DNA of 64,000 nucleotides from Synergistes jonesii (GTDB taxonomy: Bacteria; Synergistota; Synergistia; Synergistales; Synergistaceae): assembly GCF_000712295.1 (NCBI RefSeq), contig NZ_JMKI01000035.1, forward strand, positions 1 to 64,000, written 5' to 3'. Made by a program: the position numbers. This document shows positions 48,001 to 57,000 of the stretch, one piece after another; position 1 is the first letter of the stretch, and each line of letters opens with the position of its first letter.

Positions 48001-51000
48001 CCGCGCGCGCTCGGCTGCAGGGTGATAAAATGGCCGCTCGAAGTGACGAGCTGGGGCTGGCGCCTCGACGTGAACTTCCTCGCGGAAAACATCACGCCGA
48101 AGACGAAGCTTCTCGTTCTGAACATCCCAAACAACCCGACCGGATATATCCCAGTGCGCACAGAGCTCGACAGGATACTCAACCTCGCGGACCGCAACGG
48201 CACGTGGGTCTTCAACGAAGAGACCTACAGAGGCATGGAGCACGACCCCGCGGCCGCCATTCCGTCGCTTGCGGACATATATCACCGCGCCGTCGTCATA
48301 GGCGGCCTCAATAAATACGGACTGCCGGGAACGCGCATGGGCTGGCTCGTCTCGAAGAGCCGCCAGATAATCGAAGAGTGCGCGGCCTACAAAGACTATA
48401 CCACGCTTTGTAACAACGCGCCGGGCGAAGTGCTCGCGACGATCGCCATGAGGAACGCGGCGGACCTGTTGCAGCGCAACCATAAGATCGTCCTCGAAAA
48501 TCTGAGCATCGCCGAGGCCTTTTTCAAAAAGAACAGGGACCTCTTCCAGTGGGTGCAGCCGAACGGAGGCGCGACCGCCTTCCCGCGCCTGTTGCCGCCC
48601 TTCGACGTCACAGAGATGTGCGAAAAGGCGATGGAAGAAAAGGATCTGCTCATCGTAGGAGAGCGCGCCTACGGCTTAGACACAAACCATTTCCGCGTCG
48701 GACTCGGCCGCCGCGACTTCGCGCAGGCTCTCGCGGTATTCTCGGATATCGTCGACGAGGTGCGCACGGCGGAAGCGGAAGCAAAAGAAAAGTAACGCCG
48801 CGATCAATTTAAAAACGAGCCGCGCCGCGGGCTTGTTCCGCGGCGCGGCTTGATAATACGGAAAGAAAGCCTAAAGGAGAGTGATGCGCCATGCGCTACT
48901 CAAGGAGAATCTTAGCTACGCCGTCATCGTTTATCCGCGACATACTGAAAGTCACGGAAGATCCGTCGGTAACATCTTTCGCCGGCGGCCTGCCGAACCC
49001 CATTTCCTTCCCGCAGGAAGCTCTGAAAGAATCGGCCTGCAACATCATCGACAATTACGGCGCGAAAGTATTTCAGTACTCAACGACGGAGGGGTACCTG
49101 CCGCTCCGCCAGTTCGTCGCCGACAAGTACAACAAAAATTTCGGGCTTAATATCAAGCCGGCCGACGTTTTGATCACAACGGGCTCGCAGCAGGCGCTCG
49201 ACCTCATCGCGAAAGCTCTGCTCAACAACGGAGACAAGGTCATCGTCGAAGAGCCCGGCTACCTCGGCGCGATACAGGCGTTCTGCATGTTCGAGCCGCA
49301 GTTCATGCCGGTAACGCTCGAACATGAGGGACTCAACCTCGAAGAGCTGGAAAACGCGTTGAAAGCGGGCGCGAAGTTCGCCTATCTCGTTCCGAACTTC
49401 CAGAACCCCTCCGGACTCACATACACGCAGGAGCGCCGCGAAGCGATCTGCAAACTCTTCGACAAATACGACACCGTGCTTGTAGAAGACGACCCCTACG
49501 GCGAACTGCGCTTCAAGGGAAAGAAGCTGCCCTACATCGGCGCGGGCAAGCTAGCGCACAGCGTGCTGCTCGGCACCTTTTCAAAGACGGTCACGCCCGG
49601 CATGCGGCTTGGCTACATAATCACGCAGGACGAGGAGCTTATGGGGCACCTCGTCACCGCGAAACAGTCGAGCGACCTGCACACTAACATCTTCTCGCAG
49701 TACATGATCGCGGATTACCTCGCGCATAACGAATACCAGAAGCACGTCGACAAGATAACGGCGCTCTACAGGGAACAGTCCGACTCGATGCTCTCCGCGA
49801 TGAGGGAATTCTTCCCGCCTCACGTGAGATACACGGAGCCGGAAGGCGGAATGTTCATCTGGGTGACGCTCCCGGAAGGGCAGTCGGCGCTCGCGCTCTT
49901 CCACAAGGCGATGGAAAAGAAGGTCGCGTTTGTTCCCGGGGATCCTTTTTACGTCGACAAACACGACGTGAACACCTTCAGGCTCAATTACACGAACTCC
50001 ACCGACGAAATGATCCGCGACGGCATCAAAAGGCTCGCCTCGGTACTTTAGACTCTGAATCCGAGTCGGCTGGCGCGCCGCGTGTATCGCACGCTACAGC
50101 CAGCCGACTCGCAAAAAACGCAGAAGCAGCGTTTTTCTTCGCTGTCCATACGTCTCTTATAGAATCTACTAATCTACTTCACCAACCCAGCCTTCTTAAG
50201 TCCGGAAAGCACACGGCCAGGCACGAGCGGGCAAGCCTCGAATCGGACTCCTGTCGCATCCTCAACGGCCGACAAAATAGCGGGGAGCGTCGGGTTAACG
50301 CCGCACTCTCCGATGCCCTTAATGCCATAGACGCCGTAAGGATCTCGGCTCTCCACAAGAATCGTCTCGATCTCACAAATATCATCCGCCGTCGGCAGCA
50401 TATATTTATGGAAGCCGTCATTATAGAAGCCTTTGCCCTCGACGTAAGTCATCTCCTCACGGGTCGCGTAGCCGACACCCTGGGCAACGCCGCCTTCAAC
50501 CTGGCTTTCGCAAAGGACCGGGTTTACAACCTGACCGACGTCATGCGCAGCGGCGACCTTCAGGACCTTTACAAGGCCAAGCTCCATATCGACCTCGACT
50601 TCGGCGGCCTGCGCAAACCAAGGCAGACTGTTCGGAGGAATCTGACATTCACTTGCAATAAATTGATGTCCCCGAAGGTGAGCCTGGTAAGCAAGTTTCT
50701 TAATCGTCATCTCCTTCCCTCCGCCAAAAACGATACCATCCTTTAAATCCAGCTCTTCAGCCGGAACTTCCATCATCTTAGATGCGAAGCCGAAGATATC
50801 CGCACGAAGCTTCTTAGCCGCACAACTCATAACATAGCCGACCGTATAAAGCGTTCTTGTCGCGTGAGAACCGATATCGAAGGGGCCGGCGGCAGTATCT
50901 CCGAACTGCATCGTAGCCGATTCGAACGGAACGCCGACGAGGTCACAGGCAACCTGCATAAGAGCTGTCGTCGATCCCGGGCCGATCTCCGGAATACCCG

Positions 51001-54000: not shown

Positions 54001-57000
54001 CTGACTGACTGACTGACTGACTGACTGACTGACTGACTGACTGAGCATCGGGCATTTCCGTCCTCTTGTCAATAGCCTTCTTAACATTTTTTTCGCTTCC
54101 TTTCTATAGCAACTTAACAGTCCAAGATAACATTTTATAGTGTATAAAATATAGGTCACAATTATTATATCATATGTAATAATTTTGAAAAGTAGAAATT
54201 AAGAGACAACACATTGTATTTAATATAAGTTTGCTAAATTGTATTTTTTTGACATAAATTCAATCTAATACCCCTCATAAAGCCTGCTGTGCTTTTTCTT
54301 AGTGGTTTTTGTCATTTTTTTGTCTATTTATTGAGTACTTTTGGACGCCGTGTTAAAACAGCGCTACGGGGAGGTGGATTTATGCGATTGAAAGTATCTA
54401 AATAAGAACGCCGCTTCTTCACGACGCCCGACAATACTAACGAGCAGGTACCCTTAGAGCCTCTTGAACGTAAACTGCCACACGCTTTCAAGCTGTCGAA
54501 GTTTGTCGTATGTACGGACGCGGGGTTGGCGAGTACCGCGAACAGGAAGCCGAACGATGCCGCAGAGATGGCCTAATTTTTTGTTATCGTCAATTTTTTG
54601 TTTGTTTGTCGCGTGATATAGTGTACAATATTTTCCGTTGGAGGTGATTGCGTGACGGATATGCCGAAAATGAATCCAAAATTAAAAATACTCATCCCCG
54701 TCGTCCGCGGCCTCGCCCAAACGCTGGGCAAGGACTATGAGGTGAATCTTCACGACGTTTCGATGCCCGAACACTCGCTCGTCCTCTGCGAGAACGGCTA
54801 TGTAACCGGCCGCAGCGAAGGCGGCCCGATGACGGATTTCGGCCTGTTCATGCTGCAGTCCGAGAAATATCGCGATAAAGAAGGAATTTTCAACTACCTC
54901 GCTAAAAACAACAGGGGCGAGCTGATCAAATGCAGCTGCATCTTCATAAGAGACGAAGAGGGGCAGATAATCGCCTTCCTCTGCATCAACTACGACCTTA
55001 AAAAAGCCTTCGCGGCGCAGGAATTGATCGAAAGCCTCGTCAGCGTCGGCATGGGAAAGGTCGAGCAATACCCGGAAAGGCTCGAGGCGGGGGAGAAATC
55101 CGGCGGTAAATTCCCCGAGCTCGTGCGCGAATCTTTCGCTCAGAATTTGGAAGAGGTCATAGGAGATTCTCTCGAAACTGTCAGGAAGAACGCCGGCAAG
55201 CCGCTGAGATTCCTGACGAAGCCGGAAAAAAAGTTGATCATCCAGGAGCTCCTCGACAGAGGCTTTTTCCGCCTGAAGGGAGCCGTCGACACGCTCGCTG
55301 CCGAGATGGGCAACACAAAATTTACGATATACGCGTACATCAGAGAGATACAGAAACAGCGGGAGAACGCTAAATAATCACATCTCCGCGTGTACATTTA
55401 TAGTTTTAGGTGTAAATTAATTTTTATCCTTGACAAAATTTCAATATGGTATAACAATATTCTATGGTTACATCAAAAAATTGATAAATAACAATTTTTT
55501 GATGTAACGTTTAAGCATCTATTTTTAATAACCGTTATTTCACATTCACTTCGCCGCGCCGAAAAGGGCGGCGCAACAAATCCAAGGAGGGAGAGAGAGA
55601 ATGAAACTGATCGAGAGCCATCCGATCCTGGAGTACAGCCACGGTCGGGAAGTTGCATTCACCTTCGACGGGAAAGAGCTCAAGGGATATGAGGGGGAGC
55701 CCATAGCGATGGCGCTGCACGCCAACGGCGTCCAGGTCTACCGCGTCACGCCGGAGATGAAGAGGACGCGCGGTTTCTTCTGCGCCATAGGCAAATGCAG
55801 CTCCTGCTTCATGGTGGTGGACGGAGTCCCCAACGTACGCACCTGCGTAACGCCGCTTTCCGCGGGCATGAAGGTGGAGACGCAGAAGGACAAGGGACGC
55901 GTTCCCCTGGAAGTCTGCTAAGGAGGTAGAGAGAAGATGAAGAAGGTATATGAGACAGACCTTCTGGTCATAGGCGGCGGAGCCGCAGGCCTTTGCGCGG
56001 CGGCGGAAGCCGGGGGAGCCGGCGCCAAGGTGACCGTTATAGAAAGCGACCTGCACGCCGGAGGGCAGTTAGTCAAACAGACCCACAAATTCTTCGGTTC
56101 GAAAGACGAATACGCGGGGACGCGCGGCTACAAGATAGCGGACATCCTCCTTGAGGAGATAGCTGGGCTGGGAGACAGAGTGCAAATAAGCTGCAACTCC
56201 ACAGTCACCGGCTACTACCCGGAAGACGGGGTATACACCGTGATGCAGGGAGAAGAAGAGTACTACCGCATCAAGGCGAAAAAAGCGGTGATAGCGACCG
56301 GGGCGCAGGAAAGAATGATCCCCTTCACGAACAACGACCTTCCCGGCGTATACGGAGCGGGAGCGGTACAGACCCTGATGAACGTATACGGCGTAGTGCC
56401 GGGCAAAAGAGTCGTCATGGTGGGAGCGGGCAACATAGGGCTCATAGTCAGCTACCAGCTTAAGCAGGCGGGAGTGGAAGTAGCGGCGGTAGTCGAAGCC
56501 ATGCCTAAAATAGGCGGCTACTGGGTACACGCGGCGAAAATCAGAAGGCTGGGCATCCCCGTACTCCTAAGACACACCGTAGTGGAGGCCATAGGAGACA
56601 AAATACTCGAAGGCGCCGTGATCCAGGAACTGGACGACAAATTCCAGCTCATAGGCGAGCCGGAGAAAATAGAGTGCGACATCATCTGCATGGCGGTAGG
56701 ACTCACGCCCACCACGGAACTCTTCTGGCAGGCCGGCTGCAAAATGCAATACGTTCCGCAGCTCTGCGGCTACGTCCCCTACAGAGACAAAAACATGCGC
56801 ACCAGCAACCCCGACATCTGGGTGGCGGGAGACGCCTCTGGCATAGAAGAAGCCTCCGCAGCGATGGTAGAAGGCCGGGTTGCGGGGCACTCGGCGGCCA
56901 AAGCGCTGGGACTTCCGGTAGACGACGGTAAATTCGACGAATACTGGACGAGACTCCACCACCTGCGCGCCGGCGAAGTAGGAGAAAAAATCACAGCCGG

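Follow-up and report, generated by a model that had tools for sequence, protein, structure and literature searches.

A repeat-bearing leader cassette, probably a pil1-type slipped-strand attenuator, ahead of a Mo-hydroxylase operon in Synergistes jonesii

The window analysed here, the first 64,000 nt of contig NZ_JMKI01000035.1 of Synergistes jonesii, carries on its reverse strand a three-gene Mo-hydroxylase operon preceded by an intrinsic terminator, a (CAGT)/(GTCA) tract and two predicted promoters, P1 and P2 (Table 1). With its FAD, 2Fe-2S and MoCo subunits the operon resembles xanthine dehydrogenase family Mo-hydroxylases such as E. coli XdhABC, 4-hydroxybenzoyl-CoA reductase and quinoline 2-oxidoreductase. 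All three subunits have domains of that family and fall below every NCBIfam equivalog cut-off. The best solved relative was 4-HBCR alpha (E 2e-104); the nearest relatives were 67-73% identical, and the few named ones among them were Clostridia. No tract was found near any of nine orthologous operons.

Table 1. Features of the operon and its upstream region (window positions)
Feature	Position	Strand	Remarks
Mo-hydroxylase molybdopterin subunit, XDH family	50174..52471	-	domain matches
Mo-hydroxylase 2Fe-2S subunit	52465..52962	-	domain matches
Mo-hydroxylase FAD subunit (XdhB/CoxM-like), first gene	52946..53830	-	domain matches
Leader reading frame (ATG 54087)	53863..54087	-	74 aa at n=18; crosses terminator, ends 33 nt before first gene
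Intrinsic terminator hairpin and U-tract	53898..53943	-	-32.1 kcal/mol; compensatory changes
Stop codons of two short frames	53960..53969	-	TAA 53969-53967 (n=17), TAA 53962-53960 (n=19)
Perfect (CAGT)/(GTCA) tract, 18 units	53970..54044	-	(TGAC)18 at 53970-54041; n=19 in another strain
P2, predicted nested sigma70 promoter	54044..54072	-	TTGACA 54072-54067, 17 nt, GATGCT 54049-54044; 9.6 bits
Two inner ATGs	54046..54055	-	54055 in other frame, 54048 in leader frame; behind second SD-like GAGGA (54065-54061)
Shine-Dalgarno-like sequence of leader frame	54096..54104	-	duplex -7.0 kcal/mol, best in 75 nt before tract
P1, predicted upstream sigma70 promoter	54164..54191	-	TTTTCA-16-TATAAT, TG-extended; 12.2 bits; would give leader-bearing transcript
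IS1634-family transposase remnant	54406..54573	+	NF033559, E 1e-5; about 215 nt upstream of P1

The tract is the longest perfect repeat within the window and belongs to one of five homologous cassettes in the genome, with n = 18 (C35, the window copy), 15 (C48), 7 (C5), 3-4 (C10) and 2 (C31). A genome census of (GTCA)n with n of at least 3 returned only the first four places, C10 having three units and one imperfect unit. BLAST with the cassette recovered the five own copies and no further match better than E 0.25, and the copies were 68-98% identical over the 50 nt before the tract and 69-89% over the 75 nt after it. These results agree with the copies, repeat numbers and frames given in a preliminary description of this DNA. 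Its list of targets also stood for the Mo-hydroxylase operon, two YadA adhesins and a sugar transferase; the fifth, the C5 protein, was called a lipoprotein from its N-terminus read by eye and had no Pfam or NCBIfam match. Inspection by eye showed neither terminal inverted repeats nor target duplications at the ends of the cassette.

The terminators were as strong as previously described, with folding energies of -20.0 to -33.9 kcal/mol over the five cassettes. When these hairpins and one from a Cloacibacillus copy were aligned, 97% of cells could pair and 4 of 18 pairs had changed on both sides; the pairing is thus preserved by compensatory changes. Genome-wide, a crude count placed 44 of 278 predicted terminators (16%) within 12 nt of a stop codon (median 28 nt), which fits ribosomes opposing terminators in this genome.

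The SD-led ATG of the window copy lies 44 nt upstream of the tract. The frames of C35 at n=18 and of C48 at n=15 read through, giving 74 and 92 aa, and with one unit fewer or more they would stop 23 or 16 nt before the stem, respectively. C10 is currently in a short frame, and so is C5 when started at its inner ATG. In each of the five own copies, as in the Cloacibacillus copy, the long frame extended into the hairpin or past it. The earlier view that an SD-led frame runs through the tract in every copy has to be amended for C5, where the SD-led ATG is closed after five codons (two other strains have no indel at this place). Likewise, one long and two short phases were found in C35, C48, C10 and C5, whereas in C31 two of three phases are long. 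Early stopping in the other two phases of C35 holds for the main start, but not for a second ATG 12 nt before the tract and in a different frame, which reads through at n=17 and 20.

We scored 41 loci with tract and terminator: 35 of 69 scan loci, 1 of 7 family loci and the five own copies. The 36 loci outside S. jonesii lie in 26 other gut genomes (Clostridia, Erysipelotrichaceae, Coriobacteriaceae and Synergistaceae), n ranged from 2 to 20 across loci, and the genes behind the family loci mostly encode secreted proteins. The start codon with the best SD was open to the tract in 41 of 41 loci, against 18.1 expected from shuffles, and in all 16 cluster representatives (6.6 expected). The SD was stronger than the shuffle mean in 39 of 41 loci, and the start codon was ATG in 36, TTG in 3 and GTG in 2. 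At least one frame reached or crossed the hairpin in every locus. No locus had all three frames stopping early (3.9 expected, p=0.009), 38 mixed long and short frames (32 expected, p=0.007), and three (L237, L259, L265) had no early-stopping frame. Neither frame test remained significant when each cluster was represented by a single locus (16 loci): p was about 0.06 for all-early and 0.17-0.22 for mixed frames. Over the 41 loci, stops at or inside the hairpin showed no enrichment (31 observed, 28.6 expected). P1 reached at least 9 bits in 35 of 41 loci (8.0 expected) and was kept in C48, C10 and C31.

The preliminary description had not seen repeat variation; it was now found between strains. 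At the window locus another strain (L180, one assembly) carries 19 units; over 3013 aligned flanking and tract bases it differs by 18 substitutions and one 1-nt indel. This allele is predicted to be OFF. The same locus was the single true hit of a metagenome scan with an 18-nt downstream motif, the other 29 of 30 matches being chance matches without a tract, while a GTDB pattern search with the exact local -10 gave one unrelated match. Five near-identical cassette pairs were found in other genomes, and every pair differed in n. For C5, a raw-read run contained no read of the locus, the contigs from two DNA runs end at the tract, and an RNA run had no contig over the cassette.

The change from n=18 to n=19 at one locus and the tests on 41 loci support the earlier leader-peptide attenuator reading, and we consider it probable that the cassette is a slipped-strand attenuator of the pil1 type, made of P1, the SD-led leader frame, (CAGT)n and the intrinsic terminator. 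P1, a predicted promoter, would likely make the leader RNA, and ribosomes would start at the SD-led ATG. Gain or loss of a 4-nt unit shifts the frame by simple arithmetic. The n=18 frame (n mod 3 = 0) continues across the hairpin, whose formation a coupled ribosome would prevent, giving the ON state. At n=19 both upstream starts would stop 16-23 nt before the stem, the lowest state, and at n=17 the main start would stop early while the weaker inner ATG reads through, a likely intermediate. The Mo-hydroxylase operon would follow the switch, as no promoter-like site was found between the C35 terminator and the first gene. Promoters in this interval occurred in 3 of 34 loci (3.8 expected) and were also absent from C5 and C10, but the hairpin is followed by a 12.7-bit promoter in C48 and, in C31, by an extended -10 that is doubtful as a promoter. 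The preliminary view of a portable five-copy cassette understated its spread (26 other genomes) and overstated uniform control, as the C5 leader is broken and C48, perhaps also C31, has a promoter after the terminator. The unit was probably brought in together with a YadA gene, from gut donors resembling Firmicutes, and would then have been copied before a horizontally acquired Mo-hydroxylase operon.

Several observations count against the attenuator reading, among them the loss of significance with one locus per cluster, the three loci that have no early-stopping frame, the closed C5 leader and the sites behind the C48 and C31 hairpins. Three others concern distances and P2. First, the OFF stops in C35, C48, C10 and C5 are as close as 16 and 23 nt to the stem, within the range in which terminators of E. 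coli undergo partial repression according to the accessible part of PMC4824070, so that the ON/OFF switch claimed previously may not be a clean one. For E. coli tR2, the portion of the literature available to us gives more than 27 nt for full strength; a frame stopping beyond this distance existed in 29 of 41 loci and the own copies reach 23 nt at most. Secondly, the hairpin begins less than 100 nt after the start codon in 14 of 41 loci, and E. coli terminators so close to a start codon are not repressed by translation, as far as the source excerpt goes. Thirdly, P2 is conserved as much as the leader, and the attenuator model has no need of it.

P2 adjoins the tract, with its start site predicted on repeat 1-2. 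Its -10 exceeded shuffles at the window locus (p=0.024), and in 39 of 40 loci it scored above their mean. Across the family its geometry is TTGACA-16/18-[-10], the -10 ending 0-7 nt before the tract. This could mean that P2 is the main promoter and the leader frame secondary. Here n would act without translation, either by way of the RNA 5' end, its folding or stability, or by setting how far away a facing antisense promoter lies. Such an antisense promoter was significant (p<0.05) in 13 of 41 loci, 9 of which have a perfect TTGACA-17. In each of the five own copies, a weak alternative hairpin (-5.8 to -8.5 kcal/mol) takes in part of the terminator's 5' arm. In Haemophilus influenzae hmw1A, by the partial text of PMC12721329, transcription starts on the first repeat base and n tunes expression via 5'-UTR RNA. 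However, RNA from P2 would carry no start codon and would meet the -20 to -34 kcal/mol terminator; the C35 leader RNA formed no long repeat-arm hairpin (z -1.3), with the tract unpaired in the centroid structure; 13 of 16 cluster representatives, like the five own copies, had a weak antisense promoter or none; and the open SD-led frame in 41 of 41 loci and P1 in 35 of 41 would be left unexplained. We regard this explanation as unlikely. Nor was the antisense promoter supported as a universal part, as only 8 of 16 cluster representatives were above the shuffle mean.

An equally unlikely possibility is that the tract is mutable but merely grades expression or no longer controls the genes, owing to leaky short frames, weak coupling, bypass promoters or decaying copies. 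It would accommodate the short frames ending in the partial-repression zone, the closed C5 leader, C31 with n=2 and C10 with n=3-4, the C48 bypass promoter, and the presence of the gene behind C5 in the RNA run, even though the allele of the reference genome, whose n the strain of that run need not share, is predicted to be short. C35 speaks against it, with every part intact, a long perfect tract and no bypass promoter, as do the long frames, which enter or pass the hairpin in the Cloacibacillus copy as well as in all five own ones.

TRAP and HutP bind sites of repeated NAG triplets before a terminator, which the CAG repeats resemble. An RNA-binding antiterminator or ligand-sensing RNA that reads these repeats or the leader, with n setting affinity, is nevertheless very improbable: no Rfam family passed the gathering score over the cassette here or in 20 related loci, the target genes are unrelated, n spans 2-20, and no linked regulator gene recurred among loci. 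A promoter-spacing switch, which the preliminary description had raised for the perfect TTGACA 23 nt before the tract, is ruled out by geometry to near certainty, since its -10 partner 16-18 nt downstream still precedes the tract and, with no repeat left at all (n=0), a -10 on the far side would still be 23 nt or more away from TTGACA; the motif itself stands as a genuine signal, a promoter-like element conserved across the family that the attenuator reading does not explain.

Returning to the pil1-type attenuator, the predicted P2 lies across the leader start, and its RNA would begin on the first repeats. Lacking a start codon, this RNA would be terminated at the hairpin for every n, so that P2 itself is probably not what switches. 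It may serve as mutator, pause or basal leak, and most likely it would be an accessory that raises the slippage rate or slows RNA polymerase so that the ribosome catches up. Promoters aimed into (CAGT)n were found at 22 of 57 unselected long tracts, some antisense inside genes and some sigma54-like. It is conceivable, though rather doubtful, that the cassette is a two-part evolvability device in which a frame-reading attenuator is joined to a 'mutator promoter' whose sole retained role is to initiate transcription on the tract, thereby raising slippage, promoters into (CAGT)n being a general design across bacteria.

In-gene frameshift contingency loci, such as the tetranucleotide tracts in Haemophilus mod genes, likewise read tetranucleotide slippage as a reading frame. 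There the tract lies inside the target ORF; here it lies outside the target gene, since the long frame ends at 53863, ahead of the first gene and its start at 53830. With the transcriptional output predicted here, a whole operon could be switched. In the unselected scan, (CAGT)n also occurred at the start of long ORFs (Orbaceae, L071, L082). The closest parallel is Streptococcus gallolyticus pil1, where the mechanism is proven and a peptide that continues through the hairpin gives the ON state (Danne et al. 2014, PMC3894217; the comparison covers the part of the paper available to us). Both have a promoter, an SD-led leader peptide, an inner repeat whose unit is not divisible by 3 and an intrinsic terminator before the first gene; both are ON, by prediction in our case, if the frame stops close to, within or past the hairpin; n varies between strains in both, and targets are mostly surface structures. 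They differ in repeat unit (CAGT versus GCAGA) and in the short-frame stops, 16-23 nt before the stem in the own cassettes and 28-49 nt in OFF alleles of pil1. Unlike pil1, where fusions showed one active promoter, the cassette has a second promoter-like element aimed at the tract, occurs in several copies per genome and in a family across at least three phyla, fronts a cytoplasmic Mo-hydroxylase in one copy, and is known from sequence alone. In hmw1A, whose 5'-UTR carries (ATCTTTC)n, the start site lies on the first repeat unit, as the position of the -10 predicts for P2 in 40 loci, and promoter deletion strongly impaired repeat change (PMC12721329, from the part consulted), a precedent for P2 as slippage driver. 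However, hmw1A has neither leader peptide nor terminator, its output is graded via a repeat-containing hairpin cut by RNase III, and its promoter also expresses the gene, whereas the P2 RNA would be terminated; these differences, too, are drawn from the consulted part of that report.

In our literature search, bench-shown leader-peptide phase variation was limited to S. gallolyticus pili. A recognisable family with the logic of pil1, in several copies per genome, would extend to common rumen and gut bacteria; gene-centred repeat surveys would miss it because the tract is intergenic. The ON/OFF state should be predictable from n, and the nested P2 would allow a clean test of whether a promoter tunes repeat mutation rate, because removal of P2 would leave expression from P1 intact. 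With the window copy, a whole redox operon would come under chance control. A non-surface target, emphasised earlier, is real for this operon but not unique, as CheB/CheR, a response regulator and an M20 peptidase lie behind other copies. Temporary loss of the degradation of dihydroxypyridine, a toxin, has been reported for S. jonesii. The switch would explain this long-reported instability if the Mo-hydroxylase were the right enzyme, acting on dihydroxypyridine; we hold that to be improbable and the link weak. The Mo-hydroxylase was not co-distributed with a NicX-like gene (2 of 79 versus 21 of 79 family genomes). In a single genome, G034, the two genes are adjacent.

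The longest perfect repeat of the window is TGAC x18 at 53970-54041, which reads (CAGT)n on the minus strand and precedes a three-gene Mo-hydroxylase operon. In a genome-wide census, (GTCA)n with at least three units occurred at four places only, and BLAST recovered a fifth copy with n=2. The five copies can be aligned from about 50 nt 5' of the tract to the end of the hairpin and U-tract; one precedes the Mo-hydroxylase operon, two precede YadA adhesin genes, and the other two a sugar transferase gene and the gene of a 723-aa protein without a family match. The reading frames assigned to these copies in the preliminary description proved correct. 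None of the other four is as complete as the window copy. The terminator of the window copy is followed by a 71-nt gap to the first gene, in which no promoter-like site was seen. With n=18, a leader of 74 aa passes through the hairpin. With n=19, the main start and the out-of-frame inner start both stop early; with n=17, reading from the main start ends early and the inner start reads through.

Features of the window copy of the cassette
Feature	Position	Strand	Basis
IS1634 remnant	upstream of P1	opposite to cassette	sequence match
P1, predicted promoter TTTTCA-16-TATAAT	54191-54164	minus	sequence
Leader SD and ATG	ATG 54087	minus	sequence
P2, predicted promoter: TTGACA, then GATGCT exactly 17 nt on, touching the tract	TTGACA 54072-54067	minus	sequence
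Two inner ATGs	between the P2 -35 region and the tract	minus	sequence
Two TAA codons ending the two short frames	3' of the tract	minus	sequence
Terminator	53943-53903	minus	predicted

Tracts of at least four units were present in 10 of the 268 genomes of the phylum, all within Synergistaceae, including Cloacibacillus. Tracts of seven units were also sought in GTDB without further selection; 17 of its 64 parts yielded 116 loci, among which the cassette layout was seen in Clostridia and Erysipelotrichaceae. A selected scan for TTGACA 20-32 nt 5' of the tract gave 69 loci: 15 were left out for a contig end or N gap beside the tract, 16 because no terminator reached -12 kcal/mol, 1 for falling narrowly short of the cut-off, and 2, situated in coding sequence, were taken out manually. 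To the 35 kept were added the 5 own copies and one of seven additional family loci, which gave 41 loci from 27 genomes, in 16 sequence clusters. Since TTGACA was the selection criterion of this set, its presence alone is no evidence. Pfam matches were obtained for 13 of 27 ORFs that follow the cassettes in other genomes, mostly to surface domains (SLH, Ig-like, LRR, InlB-type repeats, GLUG, YadA) or polysaccharide enzymes, the others being CheB/CheR, a receiver domain and an M20 peptidase; most of the remaining 14 had a secreted-like N-terminus as judged by eye. The Cloacibacillus copy (L254) has a downstream leader sequence in common with C10 and also stands ahead of a YadA gene, a likeness which suggests that adhesins are the older cassette target. 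Five family loci (L010, L013, L015, L017, L020) carried an SD-led leader and (CAGT)n with no clear intrinsic terminator, and in L015, L020 and L010 the nested TTGACA promoter was absent as well.

The attenuator model, in which tract length sets whether ribosomes cross the hairpin, was examined in the 41 loci. The start with the best SD was open to the tract in 41/41 (18.1 expected) and in 16/16 cluster representatives (6.6 expected). P1 reached at least 9 bits in 35/41 loci against 8.0 expected, all bit scores depending on an approximate sigma70 matrix. No enrichment was found for promoters between terminator and gene (3/34 vs 3.8 expected) or for stops within the hairpin. Loci with three early-stopping frames were absent (0/41, 3.9 expected, p=0.009), a mix of long and short frames was present in 38/41 (p=0.007), and 3/41 had no early frame at all; in the 16 representatives only, the p values were about 0.06 for the all-early and 0.17-0.22 for the mixed-frame test. 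Hairpin pairing was kept through compensatory changes. In a crude genome-wide count, 44/278 terminators lay within 12 nt of a stop, which fits some ribosome-polymerase coupling when set beside benchmark values for E. coli and B. subtilis.

The window locus was found in another strain (L180, 1 of 30 metagenome matches) with n=19, as read from a single assembly; the two differed by 18 substitutions and one 1-nt indel over 3013 aligned bases. Repeat number differed in all 5 near-identical cassette pairs. For the C5 copy, contigs of two DNA runs broke at the tract, a raw-read run yielded no read of the locus, and an RNA run covered both neighbouring genes and left the cassette uncovered.

In pil1, OFF alleles stop at least 28 nt 5' of the hairpin; the stops of ON alleles lie 4 nt 5' of the hairpin, inside it or past it (PMC3894217). 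For E. coli tR2, full strength returned only beyond 27 nt, and no repression occurred within the first 100 nt of a coding region (PMC4824070). The short frames of our own copies stop only 16 and 23 nt 5' of the stem, so the output may be graded. The short-tract copies may be poorly switchable, because start and stem are 61-88 nt apart compared with the 100-nt limit in E. coli. Furthermore, the SD-led frame of C5 was closed in three strains, C48 had a strong promoter-like site and C31 an extended -10, both 3' of the hairpin. In the literature searched, to which subscription papers and supplements did not belong, pil1 was the only described case of the mechanism found, and no description of the CAGT cassette was found. 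The distinct points here are the cross-phylum CAGT family, the predicted nested promoter, two strains predicted to be in opposite states (n=18 vs n=19) and a target operon that encodes a cytoplasmic redox enzyme.

The hexamer 16-18 nt 3' of TTGACA scored above shuffles in 39/40 loci (p<0.05 in 24) and in 15/16 representatives. It ended 0-7 nt 5' of the tract in the 40 loci, which puts the predicted start of P2 transcription on repeats 1-2. Loci differ in the frame of the leader with respect to TTGACA, indicating that this motif is kept as DNA and not as a set of codons. In the unselected set (66 loci used after removal of low-complexity flanks and 20 redundant loci), sigma70-like sites of at least 8 bits ended in the last 16 nt before the tract in 13/65 loci, compared with 1-8 in eight farther bins, and were aimed into the tract from the opposite side in 7/58 (0-3 in farther bins). 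A sigma54-like motif, defined after seeing the matches, preceded 8/65 tracts, and a promoter-like site of any type was aimed at the tract in 22 of the 57 loci testable on both sides. A sigma54-like GGCAC-N5-TTGC motif stood directly 5' of (CAGT)n in L075, L077, L080, L084, L089, L090, L108, L170 and L174, from Nitrospinota, Nitrospirae and Deltaproteobacteria; several had an overlapping SD-ATG and two a downstream terminator. In L217, L220, L226, L230, L245, L246, L259, L263 and L271, the tract is bracketed by two promoters, the second being a perfect antisense TTGACA-17-[-10] that points at it from the downstream side, and the antisense stretch is complementary to the leader SD.

RNA from P2 would carry neither start codon nor SD, and the hairpin should terminate it whatever n. 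Raised slippage, a slowed polymerase to which the ribosome couples, and basal leak remain as candidate roles. For the first there is a precedent in hmw1A, whose start site lies on the first repeat: repeat change is lost there upon promoter deletion, with the authors' caveat about selection (PMC12721329). At some unselected tracts, which have a promoter-like site and sit inside long ORFs without a terminator, it is not obvious what a pause for coupling would serve. Alternatively, the P2 promoter may have done nothing but seed the tract. Speaking against a collision mechanism, promoter-bound polymerase is easily dislodged by helicases according to a review (PMC13296718).

The Mo subunit had a close ortholog in only 1 of 78 other family genomes (63%); relatives elsewhere reached 67-73%, the few named ones being Clostridia, and third-position GC was 0.63 vs 0.78 and 0.69 in two neighbouring genes. 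None of 9 orthologous operons had the tract, indicating that the cassette was gained in this lineage. In G034, a family genome, the Mo-hydroxylase ortholog adjoins a GntR gene, a transporter and a NicX-like protein, for whose own-genome ortholog the only solved relative was the 2,5-dihydroxypyridine dioxygenase NicX (E 5e-12, about half length). The cluster of GntR, NicX-like metallo-protein and tripartite tricarboxylate transporter (G000:C5 96197-97177, L002:9198-10181; G034:C39, L279) is 85-91% conserved in many family genomes; in G034 it neighbours the Mo-hydroxylase ortholog, and in the own genome it follows the C5 cassette at a distance of 3.5 kb. S. jonesii reportedly loses the ability to degrade 2,3-dihydroxypyridine, for a time or for good, when the substrate is absent (PMC12366334). 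That the Mo-hydroxylase switch is linked to this loss is improbable; the link is weakened by the presence of the NicX-like gene in 21/79 family genomes, the size of the enzyme family (333 clusters) and about ten further Mo-subunit paralogs in the own genome. At 54652-58991 of the window, a divergent YheO-like PAS/HTH regulator is followed by a sarcosine-oxidase-like five-gene amino-acid dehydrogenase operon.

Other repeats were also observed. (ACAG)11 at G000:C36:127199-127242 (L005) lies where two ORFs of a type I restriction-modification cluster meet and reads QTDRQTDR...; annotated by eye, it is likely a phase-variable hsdS. The remaining long repeats of the own genome are (GGGAT)8 at C36:85554-85593 (L006) and (TGCCAA)5 at C26:85720-85749 (L007). 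One Orbaceae chromosome has at least 18 copies of a promoter-like TTGAAA-18-TATAAT overlapping an SD-ATG, followed by (CAGT)9-17 (L074, L085, L088, L097, L106, L115, L133, L137, L140, L141, L145, L146, L150, L151, L159, L162, L164, L167); these tracts stand at the start of long ORFs that are paralogous and amount to a large repertoire of in-gene frameshifts, with the promoter-like element placed on the tract in the same way. In Saccharibacteria/Patescibacteria, (CAGT)n lies inside a reverse-transcriptase-like gene (motif GIPIGNLTSQIFANIY by eye; L068, L073, L092, L130, L135, L172, L209, L210, L212, L223, L227, L242, L249, L262, L267), possibly a phase-variable retroelement RT. Within the window, exact tandem duplications of 36 bp and 58 bp and a fragment of a Mutator-family transposase were found at 59085-59157, 59347-60066 and 948-1062.
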